Origin: an uncultured Candidatus Saccharibacteria bacterium | Lineage (GTDB): Bacteria; Patescibacteriota; Minisyncoccia; UBA6257; 2-01-FULL-56-20 | Assembly (NCBI GenBank): GCA_964646415.1 | Contig: CAZYEL010000002.1 | Coordinates: forward strand, 8,538-72,537 | Reading direction: 5' to 3' | Length of the DNA stretch: 64,000 bases | Shown here: positions 20,837-41,470 of the stretch, piece by piece | Layout of the letters: every line of letters begins with the position of its first letter | How positions within the stretch are numbered: the first letter of the stretch is position 1 | Notes under the pieces: generated by a model | Database searches by the model: none | Told to the model about the DNA's origin: nothing | Seen by the model: only the letters and a program-made list of their open reading frames with translations | Translations under genes and position numbers: made by a program

Positions 20837-20857
20837 AAAATTAATTCTTGCCTCATT

Positions 20858-20881
20858 CTACCATTCGAGCGAATGGTTCTT
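20858..20881. promoter_or_regulatory. Palindromic motif tctaccattcgagcgaatggttct upstream of uvrB
   Basis: It is near-identical to ctctacctttcgagcgaaaggttct upstream of the ArsR-family gene, and related to the 40-bp palindrome at 41075..41114. Confidence 0.55.
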
Positions 20882-20904
20882 TAGGGAAAAGAGAGATTTT
20901 AGTC

Positions 20905-20949
20905 AATAAAAACGAAATTGCCCGAGCGGGATTTCCCCCGCCCGGGCAA
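20905..20949 (-). terminator. Rho-independent terminator downstream of the AT-rich cassette
   Basis: The minus strand reads gcccgggcggg-ggaaatc-ccgctcgggc followed by aatttcgtttttatt. Confidence 0.65.
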
Positions 20950-20975
20950 CTATAATAACCTATGGTCTATTTTGG

Positions 20976-21383
20976 TTATTTTAAACACTTTGGAAGGCCA
21001 TTAAACCGAACGCAATCTTTAAATGTTTCCCACATAGAATCAACCTCATTTTTAGTATATATATTTTTCTGTACTTCTATCGTTTTATCCATAAACTTTT
21101 CATAAAATTCTTGATACCTCACGTAATTATTATTAATGTAATCGATTGCTACGACAACAAAGGCTATTGCCACCGCAACGGTCACTCCCACTATAAGGTT
21201 ATGGATGACTTTTATTCCTTCTCTTGTTTTTTCTATCTCAGAATCCAAAACGGAAACCTTTTTACCTAAAGTAGTTATGAGCGCATCCACCTCCGTACTT
21301 CCACTTCCCGCTTGACTTCCTGTCGCTGCTGCCCTACTTTCTGTCCCGGCTCCTGCGGCTGTCTCAGTTTGGATCTCGGGCAT
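20976..21383 (-). CDS. Hypothetical single-pass membrane protein (AT-rich cassette, gene 3)
   Basis: A low-complexity Ala/Gly/Ser/Thr N-terminus, one transmembrane helix (IVGVTVAVAIAFVVVAI), and no recognisable domain. Local GC is clearly lower than in the flanks. Confidence 0.45.
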   Translation of the reverse strand: MPEIQTETAAGAGTESRAAATGSQAGSGSTEVDALITTLGKKVSVLDSEIEKTREGIKVIHNLIVGVTVAVAIAFVVVAIDYINNNYVRYQEFYEKFMDKTIEVQKNIYTKNEVDSMWETFKDCVRFNGLPKCLK

Positions 21384-21387
21384 ATTA

Positions 21388-21768
21388 TCAATCTACTGTA
21401 ATAATGTCGTTTCTATCGAAGCTCACTACTTGATCGTTAATTTTAAAAATAATTCTATAGATGCCTTTTTCTGGAAAACGAGCCCCAATGAGGTTAATCA
21501 CTAGATTTGCATTGGGCTTGTTTTCGAGATTGACAAGTTTCATTTCCGAAGAAACAATTTTATTACCACTGGGCGATATAATTTCGATTGTTTTCTTTTT
21601 ATCAAAAATCACACCCGTCACGTTAATTGCAATTGAAAACCTCGGATGAAAAGCTGGAAGACCATCCGTTTTAATCAGATCAAATATACCTATAACACTT
21701 AATTTTTTTTCTTCCGAAAAAAAGGCGTTCTCGCATACATGCAGAAAATTTATCTTAAAATCATTCAT
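21388..21768 (-). CDS. Hypothetical small protein (AT-rich cassette, gene 2)
   Basis: 126 aa with beta-rich composition and no recognisable motif. It lies 20 nt downstream of the protease gene and 4 nt upstream of gene 3, which suggests translational coupling. Confidence 0.4.
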   Translation of the reverse strand: MNDFKINFLHVCENAFFSEEKKLSVIGIFDLIKTDGLPAFHPRFSIAINVTGVIFDKKKTIEIISPSGNKIVSSEMKLVNLENKPNANLVINLIGARFPEKGIYRIIFKINDQVVSFDRNDIITVD

Positions 21769-21788
21769 TGTTTTTTACAGAATATTAC

Positions 21789-22814
21789 TCACTTCCACCC
21801 CTGCTCCATAATTCTCCATCCGACCTGTTCTTGCGGGACTTGAATCGGCCCCTGCGGGGTCTGCTGCACCATATTCACTTGCTGTTTGCGGTATTCGATG
21901 GAAAGCTCAAAGTGGCGTGATTCCTGCCAACTTTCGATAAACGCAATCTTATATTGCTTTCGATTTTGCATAGCATTTATACCCAACTCGTTTTCCGGGT
22001 TCCAGAGCGTTTCAAGGTCCATATCTTTCCTGTACTCCTCAAACAGCTCCGTCATCGCCTTCGCAAGAAGGTTATCCGCGTACGCAACCGACTTCAAACC
22101 CAAGTCCTCCTTCGCCTCCTTTCGCCCGATGAAATACTGGTGCGAGTAAAGTTTTTCGGTGAAGTAATCAACAATCTTTTCCACTTCATCATCCTTCATT
22201 GGCGCTTTATGACTCTTCAGCAACCGCTTCGCGAGGATGCGGATGAGGTTATGAATACGGTTTACGTTCCCGAGCGCCAAAGGATGAATCTGCGGATTCG
22301 ACTCCACGAATTTCGAGAAGATACGCGAAAGCTCTTCGTCGTTCTTGATACCGAACTTATTTTTCGCCAAATCGAAATATGCCATCACGTCCTCGACGGA
22401 AATCGGGATTCTGTTCTGCGGGTTCTGGGGGTCTTGCGGGTTGAAAACATTCGCCGTTGAGGGGTCGATCGGCGAGATTTCTGAAAGGTCGCTCATCGCA
22501 ATTTCATCCGCGCCGAGAGCAATCATCGTCGCCGCACTGTGCGCCTTATACGGCACGAGTACGGAAAACTTATCACAATACTCCCGAATCATGGACACAA
22601 TCCTCCACGGCACCATTGTGTCGCCTCCGGCACTATAGAGAAACAGGTCGATATTCTGGGTTTTCCCGATTGCGCGGAGTTGCTTGCTCACCACGGGAAT
22701 CACGTCCATCGCAATCCGCGCGTTCACCGGTCCTGTCCGGTCGCTTGTGACATAGGTAATTACCCGCGAATTCCGTAGTCCTTGTATCTGATGTATGAGT
22801 TGTTTCTTATCCAT
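21789..22814 (-). CDS. SDH-family (ClpP-fold) serine protease (AT-rich cassette, gene 1)
   Basis: The core IDLFLYSAGGDTMVPWRIVSMIREYCDKFSVLVPYKAHSAATMIALGADEIAMSDLSEISPIDP matches the serine dehydrogenase proteinase (ClpP-class) core (...HTPGG...AMSGGT.IALAADEI...PVDP). About 170 extra C-terminal residues follow. Confidence 0.7.
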   Translation of the reverse strand: MDKKQLIHQIQGLRNSRVITYVTSDRTGPVNARIAMDVIPVVSKQLRAIGKTQNIDLFLYSAGGDTMVPWRIVSMIREYCDKFSVLVPYKAHSAATMIALGADEIAMSDLSEISPIDPSTANVFNPQDPQNPQNRIPISVEDVMAYFDLAKNKFGIKNDEELSRIFSKFVESNPQIHPLALGNVNRIHNLIRILAKRLLKSHKAPMKDDEVEKIVDYFTEKLYSHQYFIGRKEAKEDLGLKSVAYADNLLAKAMTELFEEYRKDMDLETLWNPENELGINAMQNRKQYKIAFIESWQESRHFELSIEYRKQQVNMVQQTPQGPIQVPQEQVGWRIMEQGWK

Positions 22815-22858
22815 CGCAATAAGGCAATTATACTCCAGTCATCCCAACTTTCCAACAG

Positions 22859-22904
22859 TTTCGTACTATTCGCTTATTCGTACGAATAAGCGAATAGTAC
22901 GAAA
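22859..22904. promoter_or_regulatory. 46-bp perfect palindrome tttcgtactattcgcttattcgta|cgaataagcgaatagtacgaaa at the 5' end of the AT-rich cassette
   Basis: Read directly from the sequence. It is centred on GTAC. It lies 45 nt upstream of the protease start and 44 nt downstream of the MazG-like stop. Confidence 0.75.
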
Positions 22905-22947
22905 GAATGACCACCCAACAGCCAGAAATCCGTATATGCGATTCTTC

Positions 22948-23325
22948 CTACCGCGTATCCCCGTCGCCGTGGAGCGTCCCGCGCTCCTTACGCGAGAAAA
23001 GCTTTTCGATGTTCCCCTTCGCAACTTCTTCGAGCGAGAGCCCAAGCTCGGTTGCAACCTGCGCCACGTACCACAACACATCGCCAAGTTCCCCGCGAAG
23101 CGCCGCCTTTCGCTCATCGCTCATAACCCCACCGTCATCCCGAAACGCTTTCTTCACTTTTTCCGCAACCTCCCCCACCTCCCCGGCAAGTCCCAAAACC
23201 GGATACACCAAATTACTGCCGCTATTCGGATAAATCGCCGTCTTGCGGGATTCCTTTTGGTATTCTTCGAATGTCATCGCCGTGAATTTATTTTTTATGG
23301 CAACCCTGCCTTCGACAAAGGGCAA
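22948..23325 (-). CDS. MazG-like nucleotide pyrophosphohydrolase (all-alpha NTP-PPase)
   Basis: The motif EVGEVAEKVKK...ELGDVLWYV is typical of small MazG-domain proteins. Confidence 0.7.
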   Translation of the reverse strand: MPFVEGRVAIKNKFTAMTFEEYQKESRKTAIYPNSGSNLVYPVLGLAGEVGEVAEKVKKAFRDDGGVMSDERKAALRGELGDVLWYVAQVATELGLSLEEVAKGNIEKLFSRKERGTLHGDGDTR

Positions 23326-23410
23326 AGTTCATGCTTGTGCGGTCTCGCGAACCCCCGTAAAGTCCCGCCCCTCGCGGAACCACGGGGCGCCATCCTAGCG
23401 CAAAGTCTTT

Positions 23411-24061
23411 TTAATTTGGAAGTTTGGCTAATGGACATAGTTCGTGCCGATGAGGGCGAGCTGGGCAATATTTTCTTCCATAATCAATCAGTAAATATGT
23501 CGCCCTGAACCAGTCCTTCTTCGGGATGATTACCATCAAGTCCCGCTCGATTTTCTCCGGCGTCTTTTCGCGGCTCAACCCCAGCACTCTCGACAAGCGC
23601 TTCACGTGCGTATCGACGGCAATCCCCTCCACGACGCCATACGCGTTCCCAAGGATTACGTTCGCGCTTTTCCGCCCAACGCCGGGAATCGTGAGCATCT
23701 CCTCCATCGTGCGGGGTAGTTTTCCGTCAAACCGCTCCTTCACTGCCTTCGCCGCCGCAAGGATATTCCGCGTTTTCGCCCGGAAGAAGCCACATTGGTG
23801 GATATCCTTCTCAAACTCCCGCGGATTGGCTTCCGCATAGTCCTTGAGTTTGAGATACTTCTTAAAGAGCGCGGGCGTCACCTCGTTCACCTTCTTATCG
23901 GTACACTGTGCGGAAAGCTGGACCGCCACAAGCAATTCCCAGTTGTTTCCATACTTTAAAGCGATTTTCGGGTCCGGAAAGAGCTTCTGAAGCGTATGAA
24001 AAACCTTCGCCGCCCGCTTCTTAAGTTTTGAGAAATCTTTTTCGATTGCCATAGGCACCAT
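23411..24061 (-). CDS. nth: Endonuclease III
   Basis: The HhH-GPD motif (IPGVGRKSANVIL), the catalytic Lys/Asp spacing and a C-terminal Cys cluster. Confidence 0.9.
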   Translation of the reverse strand: MVPMAIEKDFSKLKKRAAKVFHTLQKLFPDPKIALKYGNNWELLVAVQLSAQCTDKKVNEVTPALFKKYLKLKDYAEANPREFEKDIHQCGFFRAKTRNILAAAKAVKERFDGKLPRTMEEMLTIPGVGRKSANVILGNAYGVVEGIAVDTHVKRLSRVLGLSREKTPEKIERDLMVIIPKKDWFRATYLLIDYGRKYCPARPHRHELCPLAKLPN

Positions 24062-24133
24062 TATACCCCGCGCGGGAAATTTTCCGGGATTTTTTCCCGC
24101 CCAATCCTTGGGAGGATCATAATTTCACGATAT

Positions 24134-24162
24134 TTGACAATCCTCGTCAAACCTGCTATCAT
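24134..24162 (+). promoter_or_regulatory. Sigma70-type promoter TTGACA-17-TATCAT for the 3D-domain gene
   Basis: TTGACA at 24134..24139 and TATCAT at 24157..24162, with a 17-nt spacer. A small GC hairpin followed by a U-tract (24182..24204) sits in the leader, before an AAGGA Shine-Dalgarno sequence. Confidence 0.6.
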
Positions 24163-24223
24163 ATCCCCTAACAATTGAATACCCCTTCAAAGGGGGGTTT
24201 TTATTTAAGCGGCGCAAGGAATC

Positions 24224-24667
24224 ATGACTAAAACACTTATTCTTACCCTTATAACGGGTTCGCTCATACTCTACCCTTCCGCAACAGGGATTACTATGGC
24301 GGACGAGAAAATTGCCGGCATTCCCGCCGAAGCAACGCTTCTTCAGAGTGCGCCGCGGGCCCATATTGCGAAGCAAGCATCCATGGTTACCGTCTGGATT
24401 ACCGCATATTCAAGCACGCCCGAGGAAACGGACGACACGCCCTTCATCACTGCAAAAGGCACGCTGGTGCGCGATGGCATCATTGCCGCGAACTTCCTTC
24501 CCTTTGGGACCAAAGTCAAGATTCCTTCGCTTTTTGGGGATAAGATTTTTGTGGTGGAAGACCGCATGCACCGCCGGAAAACGAACAACGTGGACATATG
24601 GATGCCTACGAAGATGGACGCGCTCCGGTTTGGCGCGCATAAAGTGCAGATTGCGGTGTTGAATTAA
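24224..24667 (+). CDS. Secreted 3D-domain (RlpA/MltA-like double-psi beta-barrel) protein
   Basis: A signal peptide, then the 3D domain motifs (ITAYSSTPEETDDTPFITA...GTLVRDGIIAAN...GTKVKIP). Confidence 0.7.
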   Translation: MTKTLILTLITGSLILYPSATGITMADEKIAGIPAEATLLQSAPRAHIAKQASMVTVWITAYSSTPEETDDTPFITAKGTLVRDGIIAANFLPFGTKVKIPSLFGDKIFVVEDRMHRRKTNNVDIWMPTKMDALRFGAHKVQIAVLN

Positions 24668-24700
24668 CAGGGCAAACTAATAACTTATAACCAATAACTG

Positions 24701-24730
24701 GACCCCGCGAAAGCGGGATTTTTATTTATT
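24701..24730 (+). terminator. Rho-independent terminator
   Basis: The hairpin ccccgc-gaaa-gcggg followed by atttttatttatt. Confidence 0.6.
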
Positions 24731-24756
24731 GATAATCTACAGGTAAAATAGAAGCT

Positions 24757-25326
24757 ATGAGAAAAGTACTCAAAAAAAGTTTCTTCAATCGCCCGACGCT
24801 CAGCGTGGCGAAAGAGCTTCTCGGGAAGTTTCTTGTGCGGCGGATGAGCACAAAAACAGTCGCAGTGATGCTCACCGAAGTTGAGGCGTACGACGGACCA
24901 GAAGACAAAGCGTCACACGCTTCGCGAGGCATCACTCCCCGCACCAAAATCATGTTTGGTAGGGCGGGGCGTTTCTACGTCTATCTCACCTACGGCATGC
25001 ACTGGATGCTGAATGTTGTGACAGGCGCGAAAGGATATCCGGCTGCAATTCTTATCCGAGCGGGAGTCGCTTATCACTTACCGCTTACCGCCTCCAAACT
25101 CATCAGTGGTCCGGCGCGGCTTACGAAATATCTCCGCATCGGGAAAAGTTTCAACGGGAAACCAGCAACGAGAAAAACCGGGCTCTGGTTTGAAAACAGA
25201 GGAATAAAAATCAGTGCGAAAGACATTGTTGCAGGCAAACGAATCGGCGTGGAATACGCCGGTGCATGGGCGAAGAAACCCTACAACTTCAAATTGCGCC
25301 TTCCCGCTTCAAAATCGCGCGCTTGA
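24757..25326 (+). CDS. mpg: DNA-3-methyladenine glycosylase (Mpg/AAG family)
   Basis: The segment EVEAYDGPEDKASHASRGITPRTKIMFGRAGRFYVYLTYGMHWMLNVV matches the AAG-family core. Confidence 0.85.
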   Translation: MRKVLKKSFFNRPTLSVAKELLGKFLVRRMSTKTVAVMLTEVEAYDGPEDKASHASRGITPRTKIMFGRAGRFYVYLTYGMHWMLNVVTGAKGYPAAILIRAGVAYHLPLTASKLISGPARLTKYLRIGKSFNGKPATRKTGLWFENRGIKISAKDIVAGKRIGVEYAGAWAKKPYNFKLRLPASKSRA

Positions 25327-25537
25327 GCTTCACTCCGCGGTTATAGCCGCCAATCTCTCCGTCGGAACGAACCACACGATGGCAAGGAATCTTCGGGTCA
25401 AAATTCTTAGCCAAAATATTTCCCACCGCACGTGAAGCATCGGGATTCCCTGCGCGGCGTGCGACTTCCTTGTACGTCAACGCCTTCCCGCAAGGAATTT
25501 TTGAAACCACTGCGTACACCCGCTCTTGGAAAGTCAT
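25289..25537 (-). CDS. ogt: Methylated-DNA-protein-cysteine methyltransferase, DNA-binding domain only
   Basis: The active-site PCHRV motif and the helix-turn-helix YKEVARRAGNPDASRAVG. It is short (82 aa) and lacks the N-terminal domain. Confidence 0.8.
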   Translation of the reverse strand: MTFQERVYAVVSKIPCGKALTYKEVARRAGNPDASRAVGNILAKNFDPKIPCHRVVRSDGEIGGYNRGVKLKRAILKREGAI

Positions 25538-25950
25538 GCGAGTAAATTCAAGCCCGTCTCTGCGTCCGGCATGCGCTCAAGCTTTCCGGAAAACGCCTCA
25601 AGGCGCACTTCGCATGTTCCGGAAACGACAATTTCCTTCACGTGCCCCGCCTTGGCAGCACAATCCTTTCCTGAAAACACCCCATGCACATGCACTGCAT
25701 ATTCCCCCTTGCAAATGCCGATATTACCGGTGAGCGATGCAATCTCCACCTCCCTCATTATCGTCTCAAGATATTGCCTTGCCTCGAAATCATAGTACGC
25801 AAGCGTAACTCTTAAAGCGGCACCCAGCCCTTGGAATGTGCCCGCGCGGATGTGCGAATCTCGTGCGAAGGATATGATCCCCGTAAGCAACTCTTCCCCC
25901 TTGTCGAACCGAAGTATGGATACAGAACCTTCCCTTAGAATTTCTTTCAT
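25534..25950 (-). CDS. PPC (DUF296) domain protein
   Basis: The segments GEYAVHVHGVFSG...GHV...GTCEV are typical of the PPC/DUF296 fold. Confidence 0.6.
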   Translation of the reverse strand: MKEILREGSVSILRFDKGEELLTGIISFARDSHIRAGTFQGLGAALRVTLAYYDFEARQYLETIMREVEIASLTGNIGICKGEYAVHVHGVFSGKDCAAKAGHVKEIVVSGTCEVRLEAFSGKLERMPDAETGLNLLA

Positions 25951-26768
25951 TCCACTATCATAACTTCCCCGCCCTTGCGCCGCAAAAAGCCTTCCCGCTC
26001 AAGCGCACGGAATACTTTATCCATACGCTCGCCGGATTCACCGGTGAATGCCACAAACGACAAAACCGCCACGCGGGATTTCTCCGCAAGGAGCCGTACC
26101 ACGCGCCCGCGAAGCTCCCGGTCAGAACCTCTGAACGGCGATTGACGGCGATATTCCGCGCTTCTTCGGTTGGGATTCAAGACGCTTTTCCCCAGCATGG
26201 AGCCGTAATCCATGAGCGCCCAATACCACTCACGCGGCTTCTTTCTATCAAGCGCTTCTGCCGCGATTGCTACTACCTCTTCTTCCGGAACATTGCGTCG
26301 CCGCGGGAAAAAGTGGTGGAGAATCGCGCGCCGTATGTTTGTCTCGATAAACGTCGCAGGCGCATTGAAAGCGAAAGCGGCGATAGAGCCGGCCGTTGCC
26401 GGGCCCACGCCGGGAAGCGTTTCAAGCGCCTCGGGCGTGCACGGTAATTTACCGCAATACTCTTCCATGACAATTTTTGAAACCCGATGGAGTGCGAGCG
26501 CGCGGCGATTATATCCCAATCCCTGCCACACCCGGAGTACGCTCGCGGGAGAAGCGTTTGCAAGCGCGCGGAAATTCGGGAATGCTTTGAGAAACTCCCC
26601 GTACTTTCCCCGCACGCGTTCCACCTGCGTCTGCTGGAGCATTATTTCCGATACCGCGATTGCGTAGGGATTCCGTGTGCGTCGCCACGGAAAGTCTCTG
26701 CCGTGCGCGCGATAATAATTCCGCACGATGCGGCGAAATTGTGCGACTTGCTCTTCGCTCTTTGCCAT
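25947..26768 (-). CDS. MutY-like HhH-GPD adenine glycosylase, without a recognisable Fe-S cluster or NUDIX domain
   Basis: The N-terminus YYRAHGRDFPWR, the QQTQVERV motif and the HhH-GPD motif LPGVGPATAGSIAAFAF. Confidence 0.75.
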   Translation of the reverse strand: MAKSEEQVAQFRRIVRNYYRAHGRDFPWRRTRNPYAIAVSEIMLQQTQVERVRGKYGEFLKAFPNFRALANASPASVLRVWQGLGYNRRALALHRVSKIVMEEYCGKLPCTPEALETLPGVGPATAGSIAAFAFNAPATFIETNIRRAILHHFFPRRRNVPEEEVVAIAAEALDRKKPREWYWALMDYGSMLGKSVLNPNRRSAEYRRQSPFRGSDRELRGRVVRLLAEKSRVAVLSFVAFTGESGERMDKVFRALEREGFLRRKGGEVMIVE

Positions 26769-26771
26769 GCG

Positions 26772-27068
26772 CTATAGGCTTGTTTCCATGAGCGGCATCC
26801 CCTTCTTCGCGCATCCTTCCGCCTGGCATACGCCAGGCTTCGGCGATACTCCTCCGCAACCGCCAGTGCACATGTAATGCGTCCCGCGCTTCCGAAAACT
26901 CTCATACGCGAGATATCCGGAAAGTACGACAATAAGCACACTTACCCAAACAGGCACCGAACGCCCCGCAAACGACATTTCCCATCGAAGCGCAGCCCGC
27001 ACAAGATGTGCAAGCGCGATTACCCCAAACACGACCCCGGTTGCTTTCACCAATGAGCGAATGTTCAT
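26772..27068 (-). CDS. Small membrane protein with a C-terminal Cys-rich motif, possibly metal-binding
   Basis: I trimmed it to the M giving MNIRSLVKATGVVFGV... The C-terminus reads CTGGCGGVSPKPGVCQAEGC. It overlaps the msrB end by 4 nt. Confidence 0.35.
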   Translation of the reverse strand: MNIRSLVKATGVVFGVIALAHLVRAALRWEMSFAGRSVPVWVSVLIVVLSGYLAYESFRKRGTHYMCTGGCGGVSPKPGVCQAEGCAKKGMPLMETSL

Positions 27069-27508
27069 TTTGATTTGGAATTTTTCTTCGTGTCTTTTTG
27101 AAGTTCGAGACAAACGGAGTTGATGCAAAAATGTTCGCCGGAAGGAAAAGTCTCGTCTTTGAAAATATGCCCAAGATGCGAACCGCATTTCGCACACATT
27201 ACTTCAATGCGATGCATTCCATGCGAATCATCATTCTCCAGCCGCACCGCCCCGGGAAGAGCCCGACTGAATGAAGGCCATCCGCGAAGTCCTGCCGGCC
27301 CCTTCTCTGCGTCGAATTTCGTGTCCGACGGAAAAAGCGCCGCTTCGCATACGCCACATTGATACACCCCGTCGTCAGTCGTATGGACATATTTTCCGCT
27401 ATAAGGCGCTTCGGTCCCCTTCTCCCGCGCCACCTTGTAAAGCTCCGGCGCAAGCTTTCTCTTCCACCCGGCTTCGTCGTCTGATATATCTTTTGAACCG
27501 CATACCAT
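27065..27508 (-). CDS. msrB: Peptide-methionine (R)-S-oxide reductase
   Basis: The CxxC pairs (CGVCEA, CAKCGSHLGHIF) and the catalytic motif RYCINSVC, as in the SelR domain. Confidence 0.9.
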   Translation of the reverse strand: MVCGSKDISDDEAGWKRKLAPELYKVAREKGTEAPYSGKYVHTTDDGVYQCGVCEAALFPSDTKFDAEKGPAGLRGWPSFSRALPGAVRLENDDSHGMHRIEVMCAKCGSHLGHIFKDETFPSGEHFCINSVCLELQKDTKKNSKSK

Positions 27509-27875
27509 GCCGCTTTATTGTACCAAATGAAAAGCTCCAAGGGAGGAAATCACAAGCCCCGGTATCCCGGGGCTTGTGCTGCCTGTGTTATCTGCGGCGC
27601 TTGCTGCTTTTCCGCCGCTTGCTCACACGCTTCACTGTTCTCTTTTTCGTCTTCTTTGCCTTTTTCTTTTTTGCCATTTTTCAAACTACTATCCCAATAT
27701 GAACGCCGACCTTTGAGGCGGCGGCGATCGCATCTCGCTCCGTCTGCAAAAAATTTTTAAAAAATAGAATGCCTCGCCCTTATTAAAAATTGTAGAGCGT
27801 ATTGCGCATATGTACAGAGAAGTTATGCACAACCCTGCGAAAATTTTCCGAACCTTCGATGGCGGTGAAAGAAAA

Positions 27876-28061
27876 TCAGCGCGGAGAAGAATTCACGCTG
27901 CCGCTTATCAATGCCGGAGGAAAGTGAGGCGTGTTTCCGCCGACAAGCGATATGCCCTTCGAACGATAGAATAAAAGCGCCAAAACACTGACGGCAACCG
28001 CGACAACAAACACCACGATATGCATCATTCCCTCCCGGTCGGTAATTTTCATAACCCTCAT
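27876..28061 (-). CDS. Possible small transmembrane peptide coupled to the dinB stop
   Basis: 61 aa with one hydrophobic helix (IVVFVVAVAVSVLALLF). It overlaps the dinB stop by 4 nt. Support is weak. Confidence 0.25.
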   Translation of the reverse strand: MRVMKITDREGMMHIVVFVVAVAVSVLALLFYRSKGISLVGGNTPHFPPALISGSVNSSPR

Positions 28062-29131
28062 TCTAAACCCTCCACCCGTACTCCGACAAGCCGTACGGGC
28101 TTCTTGGCGGGATTCTCCCGGGCATCGAAAAAAGGCATAAGCAACTTGAGCATTTCAAAGGCGAGCGCGTCCGCAGACGCAAGCGCATCGGGAAATGTCC
28201 GCGATCTGGTCATTGTCCTGAAATCAGCGAAGCGCACCGTGAGCACCGCGCGCCGGAAAGCGGAAAAGCCCTGCCGCCCAAGCCGCGCAACAACGGCATC
28301 CGCAAGCGCCCGCACCCGCGCCGAGACGAAGGAAGGCTCTCCCGTATCTTGTTCAAACGTCTCCTGCTCGCCCATAGACTTTGTTTCTTCTTCAATACCC
28401 ATCGGCGTGTCATCCCTGCCGCGCAAACGCTCATATAACTGCACGCCCCATACCCCGCACAGTTCCCGAAGCTCTTCGGAGGAAAATGGCAGGAGATCGC
28501 GCACGAATCGCGCCCCGCGCCTCGCGAAAAGCGCCTCGGTCTTCGGCCCAACCCCGGGAATTGCACGAAGCGGGAGCGGCGCAATCGTTCCCGCCGCCGC
28601 CTCTTCCCGTATCACGGTAAGTCCGTCGGGCTTATGCATCTCCGTCGCAATCTTTGCAATAAAGCGATTCGGACCGATGCCCACCGTCGTAGTAAGCCGC
28701 TCTTTCTTCCCTATGGAACTTTTAATCTCCCGCGCAATTTTCTCCGCCGCTTGATATGAGCCGGCAGAGGAAAGGTCGAGATATGCTTCATCAATGCTTG
28801 TCTGCTCCACGCAAAGGACTTTCTCCGAAGCAATCCCCATAATCCGCCGTGAAACTTCCCCATATTTTCTCATGTTCACGGCGCAAAACACCGCAGCAGG
28901 TTTCCCTGCCGCGCGGGCTTCTTCGGCCAAACGCCACGCCCGCGAAATCGGCATCGCGGAATGCATCCCGTATTCACGGGCTTTATAATTTGCCGTCGAT
29001 ACCACGCCCCGCCCCTCCCCGCCCTTGGGGTCCGCACCCACCACAAGCGGTTTTCCGCGGAAACGCGGATTGTCCCGCTCCTCCACGGAAGCGAAGAAGG
29101 CGTCCATATCCAAATGAGCGATTATTCTCAT
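28058..29131 (-). CDS. dinB: DNA polymerase IV (Y-family)
   Basis: The N-terminus MRIIAHLDMDAFFASVE and the motif SIDEAYLD. I set the start at the ATG at 29131; the track M at 29140 is a TTG. Confidence 0.9.
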   Translation of the reverse strand: MRIIAHLDMDAFFASVEERDNPRFRGKPLVVGADPKGGEGRGVVSTANYKAREYGMHSAMPISRAWRLAEEARAAGKPAAVFCAVNMRKYGEVSRRIMGIASEKVLCVEQTSIDEAYLDLSSAGSYQAAEKIAREIKSSIGKKERLTTTVGIGPNRFIAKIATEMHKPDGLTVIREEAAAGTIAPLPLRAIPGVGPKTEALFARRGARFVRDLLPFSSEELRELCGVWGVQLYERLRGRDDTPMGIEEETKSMGEQETFEQDTGEPSFVSARVRALADAVVARLGRQGFSAFRRAVLTVRFADFRTMTRSRTFPDALASADALAFEMLKLLMPFFDARENPAKKPVRLVGVRVEGLE

Positions 29132-29346
29132 ACTCTCCAATCTATACCTCGATATGGATGCGGGAAAGGGGTCGGGGAAACGGGAGCTTCCCCGTTGCGG
29201 AAGTATTGAAACCGCTGGGTTTCAAGGAGCGGAGCGACGCATCCATGTCTAAATGAGAAATTATTCGCATGGCTGCATTATCACCCTCCAGGAATAAAGA
29301 AGCTTCGAGAATTCTCGAAGCTTCTTTCCCTCCGGACGCATACCTT

Positions 29347-29637
29347 CTAGAGATTGTTCTGGATATCAACGTCAAGCATATCCACGTCATTGTCCAAATC
29401 CAGACTCCCGGAATCCGCGGCATTGAGGTCACGCTCAATCGCTCCCGTGCTGTCGGCTGCCGGCGCCGCCGGAGCAACTGTTTGCGGAAGAGGAGGTACC
29501 GTGGCGGGTGCGGCAACTTGACCACTTTGAGTGGGCGAAGCTATCTCTGAACCGGTACCCACGTACCACCACGCAACCGCTGCCACAACCAGAACCACCA
29601 CCACTGCGACTATCCAAGCTGTTTTATTTTCTTGCAT
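29347..29637 (-). CDS. Small membrane-anchored protein with a Pro/Ala-rich middle and an acidic C-terminus
   Basis: An N-terminal transmembrane helix (WIVAVVVVLVVAAVAWWYV) followed by a low-complexity tail. Confidence 0.35.
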   Translation of the reverse strand: MQENKTAWIVAVVVVLVVAAVAWWYVGTGSEIASPTQSGQVAAPATVPPLPQTVAPAAPAADSTGAIERDLNAADSGSLDLDNDVDMLDVDIQNNL

Positions 29638-29655
29638 TGTAGGTAATGAAAATTA

Positions 29656-30336: not shown

Positions 30337-30449
30337 ACTGTGAATTGTATAAGGTAAAATCCGGCTTTCCAAGCAAGGTTACCCACAGAACACGAACGAA
30401 TCATGAATTATCTGGGGAAAAATGCTTTAAGTATTCCCCCGCCCCAGCC

Positions 30450-31748: not shown

Positions 31749-31772
31749 GCCTTTGCTATATCATATACAACA

Positions 31773-32711: not shown

Positions 32712-32766
32712 GATAAACACCTGGAAAAATGGGGGTACTAATGTGACGCAGTCCGCAAATAAATTT

Positions 32767-33645: not shown

Positions 33646-33734
33646 TTTGATTGTTACAATTAATGAGGGGATGGTGCTATTTTCCATAATAACACCATCC
33701 CCATTTTGTTACCTCCGCTTTCGATACGTGCGCC

Positions 33735-35573: not shown

Positions 35574-35576
35574 GCA

Positions 35577-35607
35577 AAAACCGCCTTGCGGGCGGTTTTT
35601 GCTGCTG
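35577..35607 (-). terminator. Rho-independent, probably bidirectional terminator
   Basis: The hairpin aaaaccgcc-ttgcg-ggcggtttt, flanked by A- and T-runs. Confidence 0.55.
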
Positions 35608-35714
35608 TGCTCTTAAAGAACCGCCCGTTTAAGTACGGCGGCTCCGACGAACGTTTGCTATTTGTATGAATGCCAGTTGCATTTGTGTAAATGATACGGA
35701 GAACTCCCTCCTTG

Positions 35715-35981
35715 TCAACTCTTCCAGTTCCACCACTTGAGAAGTTCCGGATTGTGCCGCGCGTGCGAAGCGTAATATACCGCACATCGCATTACATACA
35801 ACATACAGCGATCTATGTGCCGACCTTCACACGCGCACAGTTTCTGATAAAGCTTTTCTGGATCTCTTCCTTTCAAATCTCGCTCCGCGCGGATGCCGAT
35901 ATTCCAAAAATCTTCGGCGATTTCCTTTCCCACGCCGGGAATCGTGCGGAGCGCCCGAAGCGATTCTTTTTTATTTTCCAT
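35715..35981 (-). CDS. Helix-hairpin-helix DNA-binding protein (Cdd1 / pathogenicity-locus family)
   Basis: The segment IPGVGKEIAEDFWNIGIRAERDL...LCACEGRHIDRCMLYVMRCAVYYA. Confidence 0.55.
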   Translation of the reverse strand: MENKKESLRALRTIPGVGKEIAEDFWNIGIRAERDLKGRDPEKLYQKLCACEGRHIDRCMLYVMRCAVYYASHARHNPELLKWWNWKS

Positions 35982-36564
35982 CTTTCAAAACAATTCCTTC
36001 AAGGTGCGTCACCACCAAATCTTTCCCGATGACCTCGCACTCCGCAAACCCGCAATCGGCGACGTCGCCTATCTCCCCTTTTTTCATGATATCCCGAAAC
36101 ACCACCTTCATGGGACCGCCGTGGAACACGACCGCGATGCACTCATACCGCACGTCTTTCGTCATCTCCCGCACCACAAGCTGCACCCGCATGCTGAACT
36201 CCGCATAGGTCTCCGCTCCCGCGACCGTGTGCATCCTGTCTTTCACAAGCTCCACAAGTTCGGGATGCAGTTGCTTCGCCTCTTCCCTCTTCATACCCGT
36301 GAGAATCCCGTACATATTCCGCTCTTTAAGATGCTGCTTCACCATGACCGCGCACCCAAGCCGCTTCGCAAGAATTTCCGCGGTTTCGCGCGCCCGGAAA
36401 AGCGGGCTCGAAAGCACCGCCTCAATTCCCTTGTCTTTGAGTTTCTCTCCCAATTCCTCCGCCTGGTTTCGCCCTAACTCGGTAAGGTGGTCGTCATAAT
36501 CGCCGCCGTAGCGGTCTTCAATGTCGCCCATCGTCTGCCCGTGCCTGATGAAAAAAATGGTCAT
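35971..36564 (-). CDS. Histidine phosphatase (phosphoglycerate mutase family)
   Basis: The RHG motif in MTIFFIRHGQT and the downstream catalytic His (VVFHGGPMK). The start is trimmed from a TTG-extended track ORF. Confidence 0.75.
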   Translation of the reverse strand: MTIFFIRHGQTMGDIEDRYGGDYDDHLTELGRNQAEELGEKLKDKGIEAVLSSPLFRARETAEILAKRLGCAVMVKQHLKERNMYGILTGMKREEAKQLHPELVELVKDRMHTVAGAETYAEFSMRVQLVVREMTKDVRYECIAVVFHGGPMKVVFRDIMKKGEIGDVADCGFAECEVIGKDLVVTHLEGIVLKDGK

Positions 36565-36565
36565 G

Positions 36566-36805
36566 TTATTTCTCCCGCACCCACTTGAACCTCGGGCGCT
36601 TCTCCCTACCCACTTCAACTTCATCCGTGAACGTCGCGAAGGGACGCACAAAAAACGGAAACTTCCCAAATTCCGTTTCTAAGTCGGGGCATTCCTGCAA
36701 CGATTTGTAGACAACCATTTTCTCCTTCGTGTCGCTGTGATGCGCTACACCAACTAATTCGTAATAACCTCCCTTGTAGTGCTGATAGATGCCTGGTTTG
36801 AGCAT
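36566..36805 (-). CDS. DUF1653 protein
   Basis: The segment GIYQHYKGGYYELVGVAHHSDTKEKMVVYKSL matches DUF1653. Confidence 0.6.
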   Translation of the reverse strand: MLKPGIYQHYKGGYYELVGVAHHSDTKEKMVVYKSLQECPDLETEFGKFPFFVRPFATFTDEVEVGREKRPRFKWVREK

Positions 36806-36812
36806 GTTTTTA

Positions 36813-37436
36813 TTATTTCCTATATTTCGCAACAAGGAAAAGAACGAGGAAGAGTGCCATAAAACCCACGGCAACATACACCCCGTAGGCGAATGCAACG
36901 CCCCCGAGGTAGAAAAACGCCAAGCTCCCCAGTGCATCCACGCTCACGCTTGCAAGCAAAAAATTCCGGAACGATATCTTTGAAAGTCCGGCGGCGTAAC
37001 TTAAGAAGTCCACGACCACCGCCGACATGAACCGGAGCGCGACAAATCCCCAAAACTGCCGCCGCACCGAAATCTTTTCCTGCCATCCGTGCAGCTCCTG
37101 AAGAGGAGCGAATTTCGCCGCAATCGGTTCCCGCCACTTTCGTGCAATAAAAAAGGCGCACACCGAGCCAAGCTCTACGCCAGCCAAGTTATACAACCAC
37201 GCCTCCTGCCATGGCAACAACGCAATACTCGCGAACGCAACCGGCGCGCCGGGAAGCGGCGCGAGCACTACACCCAAAAAACGGAACACGATGATAACGA
37301 GCGGGGCAAGCGCCGGATATTTCTTAATAATCTCCACCGCATATTGGTTATACCCGGGGAAAAATATGGGCACGAGAAAAACGACAGTGAGTAATGCTCC
37401 CGCCGTTATCCATAAAACCTTTTTCTTATTAGACAT
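36813..37436 (-). CDS. DedA / SNARE-associated (TVP38/TMEM64) family membrane protein
   Basis: Multiple transmembrane helices and the DedA core (...FRFLGVVLAPLPGAPVAFASIALLP...). The start is set at MSNKKK. Confidence 0.7.
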   Translation of the reverse strand: MSNKKKVLWITAGALLTVVFLVPIFFPGYNQYAVEIIKKYPALAPLVIIVFRFLGVVLAPLPGAPVAFASIALLPWQEAWLYNLAGVELGSVCAFFIARKWREPIAAKFAPLQELHGWQEKISVRRQFWGFVALRFMSAVVVDFLSYAAGLSKISFRNFLLASVSVDALGSLAFFYLGGVAFAYGVYVAVGFMALFLVLFLVAKYRK

Positions 37437-37887
37437 CCTTATGAGTACCCCATCCGAACTCGGAATATGGAATTTTATTCGAAAAGCTTTGAATCGCGTA
37501 CCGGATGTAGGGAATGGTGTTCTCGGGAAGATGGTCCAACGGAAACCAGTCCAAATCATCACATTTGTCCGGTTCCATATTTTTTATCTCGCCGTTCCAT
37601 TTGCTCACCGCAAAGAAGAAATCGATGCGCTCATGGTCGCCGCACCAGCGGTGCATTGTGAGCGCAAGACTCAAGTCATCGAGCGCAACCTGGACACCCA
37701 CCTCCTCCGCCGCCTCCCTCGCCATAGCTTCCCGAAATGTTTCTCCCCCTTCGGCATGTCCCGAGGGCAATCCGTAATTCCCGTCCTCATAGCCGGTCTG
37801 GAACCTTCGCGACAGTAAAATCTTCCCGTCTTTTATGAAAAGGGCGTAGATCGAAGGAATAATTTTGAAACGTTCCTTAGCTGCCAT
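37429..37887 (-). CDS. NUDIX hydrolase
   Basis: The Nudix box GHAEGGETFREAMAREAAEEVGV. Confidence 0.8.
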   Translation of the reverse strand: MAAKERFKIIPSIYALFIKDGKILLSRRFQTGYEDGNYGLPSGHAEGGETFREAMAREAAEEVGVQVALDDLSLALTMHRWCGDHERIDFFFAVSKWNGEIKNMEPDKCDDLDWFPLDHLPENTIPYIRYAIQSFSNKIPYSEFGWGTHKDV

Positions 37888-38269
37888 AAAGCTCTATCTG
37901 AATCCCATCCGGATCGCTTAAAAAGCAATACACTCCCTCACTCGCACCTGTACGCGGTTCGGATATATCCACTTTCATTTTTAGTTCTTCGTATGCGTTT
38001 CGTACATCCGCCACGGAAAAAGCGATATGCCGGATGCCTTTTATTTTCAGGTTCTTCAAATCGTCCTTCGGCTCCTTCTTATCTTCAAACTCCCAAATTT
38101 CGAGCCGCGCATTCCCAAGCTTCAAAAAAACCGCTTTCCCGCGTAGATCCGCCCGCGCAAAACGCTGCGCCTCTTCGAACCCGAAGATTTCTTTATAAAA
38201 CTGCGCCGAGCGTTCGAGGTCCTCAACGCTTATCGCAATGTGGTCGATTCCTTTTATGCTCCGTGACAT
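37877..38269 (-). CDS. VOC / glyoxalase-family protein
   Basis: Paired beta-alpha-beta-beta-beta modules with the metal ligands H and E (GIDHIAISV...GIRHIAFSV...E). Confidence 0.75.
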   Translation of the reverse strand: MSRSIKGIDHIAISVEDLERSAQFYKEIFGFEEAQRFARADLRGKAVFLKLGNARLEIWEFEDKKEPKDDLKNLKIKGIRHIAFSVADVRNAYEELKMKVDISEPRTGASEGVYCFLSDPDGIQIELYGS

Positions 38270-38335
38270 TTTTTATACCCCGTAAAATTTGCTTCGCTCA
38301 TCACGGGGCAAGCTTCTTCCCCTTTCAATAATAAG

Positions 38336-40966
38336 CTATCTTCCATGACAATGCTTATACTTTTTCGGTCGTCCATCTTCGTGTTTCGCTCCGCACGGGC
38401 ACGGCTCGTTCCTCCCCACTTTTCCGATTGAGTCCGCCGCCTGCCGGACTTTCGCGGGAATCACCGACACGTTCTCCGGTTGCTTCCCCGCAACACCCTG
38501 CCGTGCGAGCCGGAATACGTTTAGAAATATCCACGCATTGAAGTTCGCCCAGAAGCTCCTGAAAAGCCGGTGTGCTTCGTGGCGGTATTCCACAAGCGGG
38601 TCCTTTTGCGCGTAGGCACGAAGCCCGATGGACTCGTTCAATGCCTCAAGATCTTCGAGGTGGTTCATCCACAGGAGGTCGAGAATGTTGAGCATCCGGC
38701 CCAAGGTTTGCGGGTCGGCGCTCGCCTCAAGGCTCCGCTTTGCGAGTATATCCTTGAGCGTCGCATAATTCGCGATGTGCGCTTCCTCGCCCTTCTCCGC
38801 GATTCCAGCTTCCGCAAGCCCCTTCGCTACGTTCTCTTTCGCCTCGCCGGAGAAATCTCCCGCCTGCGCTTCGGGAGGAATAAGCACTTTCAAATGCCCC
38901 TCCGCTGCTTCAAAGACAAGTTTCGTAAGCTCACCTTTGTTCATGCTCTCCATAATCTCCTGCCGCCGCGCATAAACGGCGCTCCGCTGCTTGTTCAGCA
39001 CGTCGTCATACTCAAGCAAGTGTTTCCGCATGTCGAACGTCGCGCCCTCCACCTTCGCCTGCGCCTGCGCCACCGCTTTCGAAACGATTCCCGCCTCAAT
39101 CGGCTGGTCTTCCGGCAAATCAAAGCGCGTCATGAGTTTTTTAATCATCTCCCCACCAAAGACGCGGAGGAGGTCGTCTTCAAGCGAAAGGTAGAACCGA
39201 GAAGAGCCGGGGTCGCCCTGCCGCCCGGAACGGCCGCGGAGCTGGTTGTCTATGCGCCGCGCCTCATGCCGCTCGGTACCGATGACGTGGAGCCCTCCCA
39301 CCGCGCGCACTTTTTCCGCTTCCGCGGCTGAAGGAGGGTTGCCGCCAAGAATGATGTCCACGCCGCGCCCCGCCATGTTCGTCGCCACCGTCACCGCCCC
39401 GGCTCTTCCCGCCTGCGCGATTATCGCGCCTTCGCGCTCGTTGTTCTTCGCATTCAACACTTCGTGAGGCACGTGCTCACGCTCCAAGAACGCCGAGAGA
39501 AGCTCGTTTTTCGCAATTGAGGTCGTGCCCACCAGAACCGGCTGCCCCTTCTCGTGCCGCGCCTTGATTTCCTTCGCCGCCGCCATCCACCGCGTTTCGG
39601 CGGTTTTGTAAATCACGTCCGCCAAATCTTTCCGCACAAAGGGCTTGTTCGGCGGAATACTCGTCACCTCCATCCCGTACACTTTATGGAACTCCTCAGC
39701 AGACGTCTGCGCCGTTCCCGTCATGCCCGCGAGCTTCTTGTAGAGGCGGAAATAATTTTGAATCGAGATGCGTGCATAGGTTTTGGATTCCTGCTGCACG
39801 GGAACCGATTCCTTCGCCTCAATCGCCTGGTGGAGCCCGCCGCTGTAGCGCCGCCCGTGGAGCAGACGCCCCGTGAATTCGTCCACCAGCACAATCTCGC
39901 CGTTCTTGACCACGTAATCCTTGTCGCGGTGGAACAGCGCCTTCGCTTTCAAACTCTCTTCAAGATAGTGCACAAGCCGGAGATTTTGAGGCCCGTAAAG
40001 GTCACGCACGCCGAGCATCGCCTCCACTTTCTCAATACCCTCGTTTACGATGCACACCGACTTGGTTTTTTCATCCACGGTGTAGTGCGTCTCGGGCTGC
40101 AGGTCGCGCACCACGCGCGTGAACGTTTTGTAATACTCGCTCGACTCGGTGTCCGGCGCCGCGATGATAAGCGGCGTCCGCGCCTCGTCAATCAAAATGC
40201 TGTCCACCTCGTCGATAATCGCATAGTAATTGCTTCCCCGCGCGGACTGCACCTGGCCAAATAAACTGTAGGAAAGATTGTCCCGCAAATAATCGAAACC
40301 GAATTCGTGGTTCGTGCCGTACGTCACGTCCGCCAAGTACGCCTCGCGTCGCGTGATGGGACGCAGGAACTCCTGCTGCACGAGGAAACTTCCGGTTTCA
40401 TCGCGCTCCTTATCGAGCAGCTTTGATTCTCCTTCTCCCTCTTTTTTCTTTTCGGACTCCGCTGGTGCTTTATACGTAGGGTCGTAGAGATACGCCGCGT
40501 TTGGCACAAGGCATGCGACGGAGAGCCCCAAAGCTCGGTAAATCTGCCCCATCCACACGGCGTCGCGCCGCGCGAGGTATTCGTTCACCGTCACCACGTG
40601 CACGCCTTTCCCGCCAAGCGCATTCAAGTAGGCAGGCGCCACCGCTGCAAGCGTCTTCCCTTCACCCGTCATCATCTCGGCGATGCCGCCCTCATGAAGC
40701 ACCATGCCGCCCATAAGCTGCACATCGTAGGGGCGCTGCCCCAGGGTCCGCCGCGCCGCCTCGCGCGAGAGCGCAAACGCACGCGGCAGCATGTCGTCAA
40801 GCGGCGTCCCGCTCCCCGCCAGTGTTTTAAGCTTTGCACTCTCCTCGCGGAGCGCCTCGTCCGAGAGCTGCTGCACCTCCGGCTCAAGCGCGGTAATAGC
40901 CACCGCCCGTTCCCGGAAAGCGTTCAGCTTCCTTCCGCTAAAAATATTTTTTACGATGCCGAGCAT
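38336..40966 (-). CDS. secA: Preprotein translocase ATPase SecA
   Basis: The DEAD motor motifs (MTGEGKTL, DEVDSILIDEA), the preprotein cross-linking domain and the C-terminal zinc finger CPCGAKHEDGRPKKYKHCHG. Confidence 0.95.
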   Translation of the reverse strand: MLGIVKNIFSGRKLNAFRERAVAITALEPEVQQLSDEALREESAKLKTLAGSGTPLDDMLPRAFALSREAARRTLGQRPYDVQLMGGMVLHEGGIAEMMTGEGKTLAAVAPAYLNALGGKGVHVVTVNEYLARRDAVWMGQIYRALGLSVACLVPNAAYLYDPTYKAPAESEKKKEGEGESKLLDKERDETGSFLVQQEFLRPITRREAYLADVTYGTNHEFGFDYLRDNLSYSLFGQVQSARGSNYYAIIDEVDSILIDEARTPLIIAAPDTESSEYYKTFTRVVRDLQPETHYTVDEKTKSVCIVNEGIEKVEAMLGVRDLYGPQNLRLVHYLEESLKAKALFHRDKDYVVKNGEIVLVDEFTGRLLHGRRYSGGLHQAIEAKESVPVQQESKTYARISIQNYFRLYKKLAGMTGTAQTSAEEFHKVYGMEVTSIPPNKPFVRKDLADVIYKTAETRWMAAAKEIKARHEKGQPVLVGTTSIAKNELLSAFLEREHVPHEVLNAKNNEREGAIIAQAGRAGAVTVATNMAGRGVDIILGGNPPSAAEAEKVRAVGGLHVIGTERHEARRIDNQLRGRSGRQGDPGSSRFYLSLEDDLLRVFGGEMIKKLMTRFDLPEDQPIEAGIVSKAVAQAQAKVEGATFDMRKHLLEYDDVLNKQRSAVYARRQEIMESMNKGELTKLVFEAAEGHLKVLIPPEAQAGDFSGEAKENVAKGLAEAGIAEKGEEAHIANYATLKDILAKRSLEASADPQTLGRMLNILDLLWMNHLEDLEALNESIGLRAYAQKDPLVEYRHEAHRLFRSFWANFNAWIFLNVFRLARQGVAGKQPENVSVIPAKVRQAADSIGKVGRNEPCPCGAKHEDGRPKKYKHCHGR

Positions 40967-41074
40967 AGCAATAATAATAAAAACCGTGAATCCGCTCTAC
41001 CGAAGAACGCCTACAACTATACAGCGTTTAAGGTTTCTTTTCCATAACTGCGCGTCCGGATCCACTCATATGTC

Positions 41075-41114
41075 CCCCTCATTCTACCTTTCGCGCGAAA
41101 GGTAGAATGAGGGG
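41075..41114. promoter_or_regulatory. 40-bp perfect palindrome cccctcattctacctttcgc|gcgaaaggtagaatgagggg, about 110 nt upstream of secA and 30 nt downstream of the ArsR-family gene
   Basis: Read directly from the sequence. Its core TACCTTTCG-CG-CGAAAGGTA is related to the motifs at 41447..41470 and 20858..20881. Confidence 0.7.
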
Positions 41115-41142
41115 AATCAATTCTTGCTACAACGCTTATTTA

Positions 41143-41403
41143 CTACAGTAAAGCAATGATCCGCTCTACCGGAACGGACTGACTCCTGGCAAGCCAATAA
41201 TATGCCTGCGCGCTCCGCTGCTCGCGCTCCACAATGTCGCACCCACTAAGTATGCCGAGATGCTTTGAAGTTGCTTTGAGTGAAATGCGAACCTCCCGGG
41301 CAATATCTCCCACGGAGGCCTCGCCGTGATGTTTGAGGTGCTTAAGAATCGCAAGCCGCCTCCTATTGGCAAGTGCTTTTAGCGGTTTCTCCATTTCGCG
41401 CAT
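41143..41403 (-). CDS. ArsR/SmtB-family transcriptional regulator
   Basis: The winged helix-turn-helix ANRRRLAILKHLKHHGEASVGDIAREVRISLKATSKHLGIL. Confidence 0.8.
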   Translation of the reverse strand: MREMEKPLKALANRRRLAILKHLKHHGEASVGDIAREVRISLKATSKHLGILSGCDIVEREQRSAQAYYWLARSQSVPVERIIALL

Positions 41404-41446
41404 AGCAATAAAATTGCAAAAAATATCCAGTGCCTCTCTCCTATAC

Positions 41447-41470
41447 TCTACCTTTCGAGCGAAAGGTTCT
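41447..41470. promoter_or_regulatory. Palindromic motif tctacctttcgagcgaaaggttct in the promoter region of the ArsR-family gene
   Basis: Read directly from the sequence. It lies about 45-65 nt upstream of the arsR-like start. Confidence 0.6.

Follow-up and report, generated by a model that had tools for sequence, protein, structure and literature searches.

The 64-kb window analysed here (the whole stretch of contig CAZYEL010000002.1 under study, 64,000 nucleotides from an uncultured Candidatus Saccharibacteria bacterium, assembly GCA_964646415.1) carries a family of palindromic, operator-like sites that stand upstream of uvrB, of a small ArsR-family gene and of secA, all three on the minus strand. 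The uvrB gene (18719..20815) matches Pfam UvrB, UvrB_inter and Helicase_C, and translation from its ATG at 20815 gives a typical UvrB N-terminus. The ArsR-family gene (41143..41403) encodes a winged-helix protein of 86 amino acids (aa), the presumed regulator, with matches to Pfam HTH_20 and HTH_5 and to NCBIfam HTH_metalloreg, and secA (38336..40966), which carries the Pfam SecA domains, is the gene 3' of it. These Pfam and NCBIfam matches uphold the identities given to the three genes by a first-pass annotation made from the sequence alone.

Scanning the window with the 20-nt core pattern CTACCWTTCGNNCGAAWGGT, with up to three mismatches allowed and 100 shuffles for comparison, gave exact matches at 20858-20877, 41084-41103 (41086-41105 on the other strand) and 41448-41467. 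In total, six matches with three or fewer mismatches were found against 0.19 expected, a number reached by none of the 100 shuffles, and the three palindromic sites claimed in the first-pass annotation are therefore present far above chance. Two of them lie exactly where it had placed them (41447-41470 and 41075-41114), and the first 24-mer, at 20857-20880, is off by 1 nt. Read along the coding strand, they take the form GAACC(W)TTCGCTCGAA(W)GG, followed directly by TAGAAT or TAGAGT, and they precede the ATG by about 41 nt at uvrB, 43 nt at the regulator gene and 110 nt at secA. The site upstream of uvrB (20854..20883, minus strand) has its core ATTCGAGCGAAT at 20863-20874, reads AAAGAACCATTCGCTCGAATGGTAGAATG on the coding strand and scores 21.7 with a matrix of the site family; the TGGTAGAAT within this sequence looks like an extended -10 element. 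The site upstream of the regulator gene (41445..41472, minus strand; core TTTCGAGCGAAA at 41453-41464, coding strand GAGAACCTTTCGCTCGAAAGGTAGAGT) is the presumed autoregulatory operator. The third site, the "downstream" member of a conserved pair around the regulator gene, is a 40-bp perfect palindrome without assigned strand (41075..41114; core TTTCGCGCGAAA at 41089-41100) that lies 29 nt 3' of the regulator stop codon, and its arms, 41075-41095 and 41094-41114, are complementary at 100%.

A fourth site, overlooked by the first-pass annotation, is the best match to the family consensus in the window. An inverted-repeat search identified it as a 46-bp perfect palindrome, TTTCGTACTATTCGCTTATTCGTACGAATAAGCGAATAGTACGAAA (22859..22904, no strand assigned), with a family-matrix score of 36.5, lying 5' of an operon for a Clp-fold SDH-family protease and a DUF6941 protein and 3' of mazG. 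Its flanking base is T (GCTTATTCG), whereas the other three sites in the window have a C-type flank. Across the 64 kb the family matrix picks only the uvrB, secA and 22.8-kb sites, and nothing scored above 8 in 20 shuffles of the window. With its TTTCG/CGAAA and TAGAGT variants, the site upstream of the regulator gene scores below this threshold of 8, so that for the lineage of the window the matrix is overly strict. The TTTCG..CGAAA change is symmetric, being found in both arms of both regulator-flanking sites, in place of the ATTCG..CGAAT present in 99% of sites elsewhere, in the uvrB site and in the closest related locus, and it might weaken autoregulation. One half-motif was also seen inside the secA coding region (39179-39195, TTCAAGCGAAAGGTAGA), matching the right half of the motif with one mismatch, and is probably chance or a remnant.

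The 86-aa protein scores 35.7 bits with HTH_20 (cut-off 27), 33.2 bits with HTH_5 (cut-off 22) and 66.6 bits with HTH_metalloreg (cut-off 55), and by these profile matches it is classed as a member of the ArsR/SmtB family. A protein of Candidatus Liptonbacteria matches it at 100% identity, and its homologs, over 700 in number and nearly always 86 aa long, share about 60-85% identity with it; where their sources are named, these are Patescibacteria/Parcubacteria lineages. A profile of 18 homologs matched the solved structures of HlyU, NolR, CzrA, BigR, SmtB and CadC over residues 3-83, with the best matches to HlyU (3jth, E = 1.2e-10) and NolR (4omy, E = 9e-8). In the alignment of these 18 sequences the recognition helix is invariant at S41, T45, S46, H48 and L49, and H48 is the sole invariant histidine. 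The same alignment contains no conserved cysteine or metal-ligand cluster, the C-terminal helix included, and the regulator has neither the alpha3/alpha3N cysteines nor the alpha5 His/Asp/Glu residues of a metal or metalloid sensing site. It is therefore an ArsR-fold protein without the known sensing sites of its family.

In order to compare regulator and site across the Candidate Phyla Radiation (CPR), one genome per GTDB species was scanned, yielding 424 tblastn-confirmed regulator loci, 80 of which were taken with their flanks for site comparison (L-numbers below are labels of compared related loci). Among the names carried by these 80 are Lipton-, Harrison-, Giovannoni-, Niyogi-, Lloyd-, Jorgensen-, Kerfeld-, Uhr- and Doudnabacteria. 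In 78 of the 80 loci TTCG-N2-CGAA is found no more than 150 nt 5' of the regulator ortholog, and in 68 a second copy stands no more than 200 nt 3' of it, often overlapping the stop codon. This lends strong support to the idea, raised from the two flanking sites in the window, that the gene is autoregulated; in both position and consensus the motif appears as an inverted-repeat operator at the regulator's own promoter, and autoregulation is thereby implied. The aligned sites give the consensus a-TTC-tCTa-ATTCG-cg-CGAAT-rgk-n-GAAT-A, and the full site is a 13-2-13 inverted repeat, ATTC-N4-ATTCG-N2-CGAAT-N4-GAAT, with four ATTC(G) half-sites. The gene-proximal outer arm, GAATA, is better conserved than its mirror image, an asymmetry that faces the gene, and the flank in the Liptonbacteria lineage of the window is ACC/GGT as opposed to CTA/TAG.

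Measured in 1.26 Mb, ATTCGNNCGAAT occurs in 194 copies, against 0-1 for control palindromes of equal composition. Placement is intergenic, with 174 of 192 copies (91%) outside open reading frames (ORFs) where the non-coding fraction is only 19%, and the sites are oriented towards the downstream gene. The first-pass annotation had named a generic repeat, dispersed in dozens of copies unrelated to promoters, as the finding that would speak against an operator; copies are indeed many per genome, but they are associated with promoters and not randomly placed. In the closest relative, L003 (regulator 85% identical), the same order of hpf, regulator and secA is kept with sites at both positions, and the palindrome orthologous to 41075-41114 has changed in both arms together. 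A site also lies 5' of secA in L006 and L032, where, as in L003, the regulator gene is adjacent, and is absent in L024; secA is a target wherever regulator-secA synteny holds.

The protein and its sites also vary together. Residue 65 (within QRS-x-Q) belongs to a segment aligned with HlyU residues 17-91, a part that we take, from what is known of the ArsR/SmtB fold, to be the beta-hairpin wing. The base 5' of ATTCG is predominantly C in none of the 59 loci with Leu65 and is C in 14 of the 22 loci with another residue (mostly Ser, Ala, Phe or Ile), a difference with a Fisher test value of 1.8e-10 when phylogeny is ignored. By sequence, the proteins without Leu65 form at least six separate clusters, and the nearest neighbours of these mostly carry Leu. 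Two paralogs in one genome each stand beside their own site type, L022 with Ser and CTCATTCG and L033 with Leu and CTAATTCG or CTTATTCG, and a second genome shows the same arrangement (L021 and L044). The protein of the window has Ala65, and C-type sites precede uvrB, its own gene and secA. The T-type fourth site (22859-22904) may belong to a Leu-type paralog encoded elsewhere, as none was found within the 64-kb window. On these sequence comparisons, the co-variation of residue 65 with the flanking base is the strongest indirect evidence that the regulator reads the site.

The predicted regulon extends well past the regulator itself. A metagenome scan for the oriented consensus returned at least 228 oriented site instances in at least 120 loci and at least 652 kb, and among the matches listed (228 oriented instances) 20 precede an ArsR-like ORF, so most copies would serve other genes. 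Away from the regulator gene, the 80 loci hold about one site per 25 kb. Behind about 250 sites stand, for the most part, housekeeping genes with no relation to one another. Among about 120 ORFs downstream of sites, Pfam annotation identified Arg-, Ser- and Glu-tRNA synthetases and a release factor in translation; four Mur ligases, phosphoglycerate kinase (pgk), SecA, YchF, sugar-nucleotide enzymes and transporters among other housekeeping functions, together with some unknowns; and, acting on DNA, topoisomerase I (topA) and a DNA polymerase III delta-type clamp-loader subunit (Pfam DNA_pol3_delta2). The protein that recurs most among non-regulator targets is rich in Cys, measures about 580-620 aa and bears zinc ribbons at both termini; no Pfam match was found for it. 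It was seen ten times (L021:10363-12174, L035:10367-12229, L091:2399-4114 and seven others), often directly 3' of the regulator gene and sometimes as tandem paralogs.

This combination of protein and operator can be set against known members of the family. SmtB/CzrA-type repressors use 12-2-12 operators, and with SmtB, CzrA and CadC the regulator shares a small winged-helix fold and significant sequence similarity. Here, too, the promoter of the regulator gene holds a long, imperfect inverted repeat centred on 2 bp, and by analogy the 13-2-13 architecture of this repeat and its position match those 12-2-12 operators. Unlike SmtB, CzrA and CadC, however, the regulator described here is without the alpha3N cysteine and alpha5 His/Asp/Glu metal sites, is shorter (86 aa) and is not linked to a metal-efflux or detoxification operon, and its apparent regulon comprises dozens of unrelated genes. 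The half-site also differs, being ATTCG and not the TGAA/TTCA of SmtB, CzrA and CadC. HlyU (Vibrio), NolR (Sinorhizobium), BigR and PagR, too, are without classical metal sites and control genes other than those of metal resistance. Whereas HlyU and BigR have redox-active cysteines, none is conserved here, and whereas the regulons of these four proteins are small and lineage-restricted, the present regulator is conserved with its motif across several CPR classes. We found no description of the regulator and site pair in the searchable literature. The system would be a variant of the ArsR/SmtB-type operator that has no sensor, acts globally and is conserved in several CPR classes.

Taken together, we consider it probable, with room left for other explanations, that the motif is the operator of the 86-aa ArsR/SmtB-fold protein encoded at 41143-41403, and that this protein is an autoregulated, sensor-less repressor with a large regulon. 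From the observed sites, their conservation, their intergenic and oriented placement and the protein-DNA co-variation, we infer physical binding and its stoichiometry, repression over activation, and any input signal. The regulator would most likely bind the 13-2-13 site as a dimer, or as two dimers in the way of SmtB/CzrA-type proteins on 12-2-12 sites, and once bound would sit on or beside core promoters and repress them, its own and that of the next downstream gene included. As no sensing residues are conserved, control may be exerted through the level of the protein, a partner protein or proteolysis. The pair is conserved across Paceibacteria-type CPR and would be used at many promoters per genome, with a target set that turns over quickly between lineages; in the genome of the window the targets would be uvrB, secA, the regulator itself and perhaps the Clp-SDH operon.

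The geometry of the promoters bears on whether the bound protein represses. Among 387 unique sites, 56 have TAGAAT as the outer half-site nearest the gene, and 40 of these 56 read TGnTAGAAT, an extended -10 box. In several sites of the TAGAAT type the start codon follows 6-10 nt later, which suggests leaderless mRNAs, and in a smaller subset a TGnTATAAT box lies 28-31 nt from the site centre, placing the site over the -35 region. Two wider assignments of the outer arm did not hold. As a general -10 box, xxGAAT was rejected, since G3 of the hexamer is 87% conserved and A2 only 50%, with TGnTAGAAT in about 10-15% of sites; and if it is taken as a -35 box, the enrichment of -10 boxes at the spacing required is only weak. 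Placement on or near the core promoter is variable, which favours repression, and the geometry of these promoters fits occlusion.

Several points weigh against the favoured explanation. A promoter-like TTGGAA-17-TATAAT (22855-22827) starts 3 nt past the gene-proximal end of the fourth site, the secA palindrome lies 30 nt upstream of a TGGAAA-17-TATAGT, and a second candidate uvrB promoter has its -35 box well downstream of the site. Where promoters can be recognised, the sites therefore differ in their position relative to them; simple occlusion does not account for secA, the second uvrB promoter or the Clp-SDH operon, and activation may be at work. The regulator has no recognisable sensor in the 18-homolog alignment, and an AlphaFold2 model built from the 18 sequences (predicted local distance difference test score of 74.7) is good in the helix-turn-helix and unreliable in the wing. 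The residue-65 statistic is uncorrected for shared ancestry, and the link between regulator and site as a whole comes from comparative genomics. In about 10% of sites, two of them from the window, the palindrome is perfect over arms of 17-23 nt and extends well beyond the consensus footprint, and the arms of the orthologous palindromes have changed together (the window has CTCATTCTACC..GGTAGAATGAG, L003 has CTCACTCCACC..GGTGGAGTGAG), which hints at a further constraint of a structural kind.

One alternative is that the regulator does bind the site but activates or specifies promoters, the 13-2-13 module being a standard promoter cassette to which RNA polymerase is recruited by the protein. Some contigs hold one oriented site in almost all of their intergenic gaps (ten in about 4 kb in L159), the gene-proximal GAATA is more conserved than its mirror image, and some sites stand at activator-like distances, well upstream of the nearest sigma-70-type promoter. 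An identity of 60-85% across CPR classes is also unusually high for a transcription factor. However, sites stand at widely varying distances from the -10 box or the start codon, unlike the fixed spacing of class I or class II activation, and many sites overlap a -10-like box. Characterised ArsR/SmtB proteins, in addition, are nearly all repressors. We regard activation as unlikely, though it is the competitor to be taken most seriously.

A different protein might instead read the motif, either an alternative sigma factor or another DNA-binding protein, with the ArsR-like gene merely its best-conserved target. The comparative nature of the regulator-site link leaves room for this, as do the asymmetry of the site, its orientation with transcription and the extended -10 box that it sometimes holds. 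Dyad symmetry, however, suits a dimeric helix-turn-helix protein and not a sigma factor, and a -35/-10 pair would need more than the 11 nt that separate ATTCG from GAAT. With the wing residue co-varying with the flanking base, and with paralogs of one genome standing beside their own site types, we judge another reader to be quite improbable.

The first-pass annotation had suggested that the site upstream of uvrB could bring this gene into a regulon for DNA damage or stress that is independent of LexA, a model in which uvrB would be a core member. The uvrB gene does carry the site in the genome of the window, and repair-type genes recur among the targets elsewhere: RarA (twice), DinB, an ExoX-like protein, PD-(D/E)XK nucleases (two), MPG (two), Xth-like proteins (two) and a PIF1-like helicase. 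Genes of DNA-metabolism type nevertheless make up about 12% of the roughly 120 annotated targets, a share unlike that of an SOS-type network, and most targets are genes such as those for tRNA synthetases, Mur ligases, release factor and transporters, along with secA, pgk and topA. An ortholog test that covered uvrA, uvrB and dinB sought the motif within 250 nt upstream; it was found at none of five other uvrB loci, none of four uvrA orthologs and one of four dinB orthologs, and the operator is thus not conserved upstream of these core repair genes as in an SOS-type system. No UvrB homolog was found among the approximately 250 ORFs downstream of sites outside the window.

As that annotation had noted, there is no LexA homolog within the 64 kb, but this says little because the window is only a fraction of the genome. 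LexA homologs are in fact present in L046, L073, L074 and L187, all of which have the regulator-site system, and lexA itself has no site there. The LexA/SOS network of Patescibacteria is reportedly the subject of work by Sanchez-Osuna, Barbe and Erill (Environ Microbiol, 2017). The two systems have in common palindromic operators in CPR genomes that precede some DNA-repair genes; they differ in that LexA is an S24 peptidase and the present regulator has the ArsR fold, and in that repair genes are not conserved targets here. The comparisons do not support a damage regulon, which we consider very improbable. Since the site is missing at the other uvrB and uvrA orthologs, the targets are diverse and LexA coexists with the system, uvrB appears to have joined a broad regulon in this lineage specifically, and its site is no evidence of a damage response. 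The attractive idea of uvrB in a new DNA-damage regulon is thereby corrected for this window.

Least probable of all is a structural nature of the palindromes, as terminators, as RNA hairpins or as a small dispersed repeat, in place of an operator function: the secA palindrome folds as RNA at -35.6 kcal/mol (z = -5.7), and the long arms of about a tenth of the sites change together, but the secA palindrome is followed by GGGGGACAUAUG with no U-tract, a terminator scan was silent there, most sites have perfect arms of only 6 nt, the core sequence and not the pairing is conserved across bacterial classes, the sites face start codons upstream of first genes, and an Rfam search gave no family match. 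The notion that downstream sites are longer palindromes that terminate the regulator gene was likewise rejected, arm-length distributions being the same upstream and downstream. Within a single genome the outer palindrome arms vary from site to site. In the long palindromes, operator function may be overlaid by a structural role or by some process at the DNA level that keeps the arms symmetrical.

Two other perfect palindromes were noticed in the window. One of 40 bp (15551-15590, CATATACAAACTTATTGCAC/GTGCAATAAGTTTGTATATG) has no TTCG core and lies in the gap just 3' of uvrA. The other, of 32 bp (29296-29327, AAAGAAGCTTCGAGAA/TTCTCGAAGCTTCTTT), is inside a 127-aa ORF just 5' of dinB (28058-29140, minus strand) and has TTCG and CGAA 8 nt apart, not 2.

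Three genes make up the unit behind the fourth site (20976..22814, minus strand); besides the Clp-fold SDH-family serine protease and the DUF6941 protein they encode an unknown protein of 135 aa. A hairpin that resembles a terminator and has a T-run (20951-20916) closes the unit and precedes the uvrB site as the first-pass annotation had described. With its lower GC content (0.447 for 20001-22000) and its own terminator, the unit forms a small island, and the protease has a weak FFLEELY-motif match. DNA-repair genes are dense over 15696-29140, where uvrA, uvrB, an HhH-GPD glycosylase (23411-24061), mazG (22948-23325), a methylpurine glycosylase (MPG; 24757-25326) and dinB are found. MPG homologs are site targets in L075 and L151, and the MPG gene of the window has no site. 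The start codons at 20815, 22814, 40966 and 41403 have no Shine-Dalgarno sequence and share similar contexts (TTATTGC(T/G)ATG), often with a -10-like box 7-12 nt 5' of them, and many site-bearing genes in related loci appear leaderless.

A possible related element lies upstream of mraZ (51803-52234, minus strand; Pfam MraZ match), which is followed by mraW. Eight CGAAT/ATTCG pentamers form a symmetric array (52243..52312, no strand assigned) between a TATAAC -10-like box and the mraZ ATG. The pentamers are the half-site sequence of the operator, and the only other mraZ locus compared (L022) has GCGAG-type repeats in place of the CGAAT cluster; membership of the array in the operator system is uncertain. 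Also 5' of mraZ, two direct TTATCCAC(A/T) boxes (52335-52355) look like DnaA boxes or like MraZ boxes of the GTGG type. L022 has a similar TGTGGATAA 5' of mraZ, as do L187 and L046 5' of their lexA homologs.

Finally, the observations allow a bolder interpretation than an autoregulated repressor, one that we hold only tentatively and think somewhat doubtful as a whole. The sensor-less ArsR-fold protein may be a master transcription factor of Paceibacteria-type CPR, with its site in dozens of housekeeping promoters per genome (translation, cell wall, secretion and DNA metabolism). It might switch cells globally between growth and quiescence, or even specify promoters. Paralogs that differ in the wing (Leu with A/T, Ser or Ala with C) might then run two parallel regulons of the same core in one cell, and the long palindromes might add a layer of DNA or RNA structure. 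CPR/Patescibacteria have few regulators, and most cannot be grown alone; to our knowledge, almost nothing is known about how transcription is controlled in them. If true, this would be an unusual use of the ArsR fold, with no sensor, a global reach and operator variants specific to paralogs. The prediction comprises both a residue-to-base specificity rule and a broad target set, and the regulator-operator pair would, if it holds, be a first concrete, testable piece of a CPR regulatory network.

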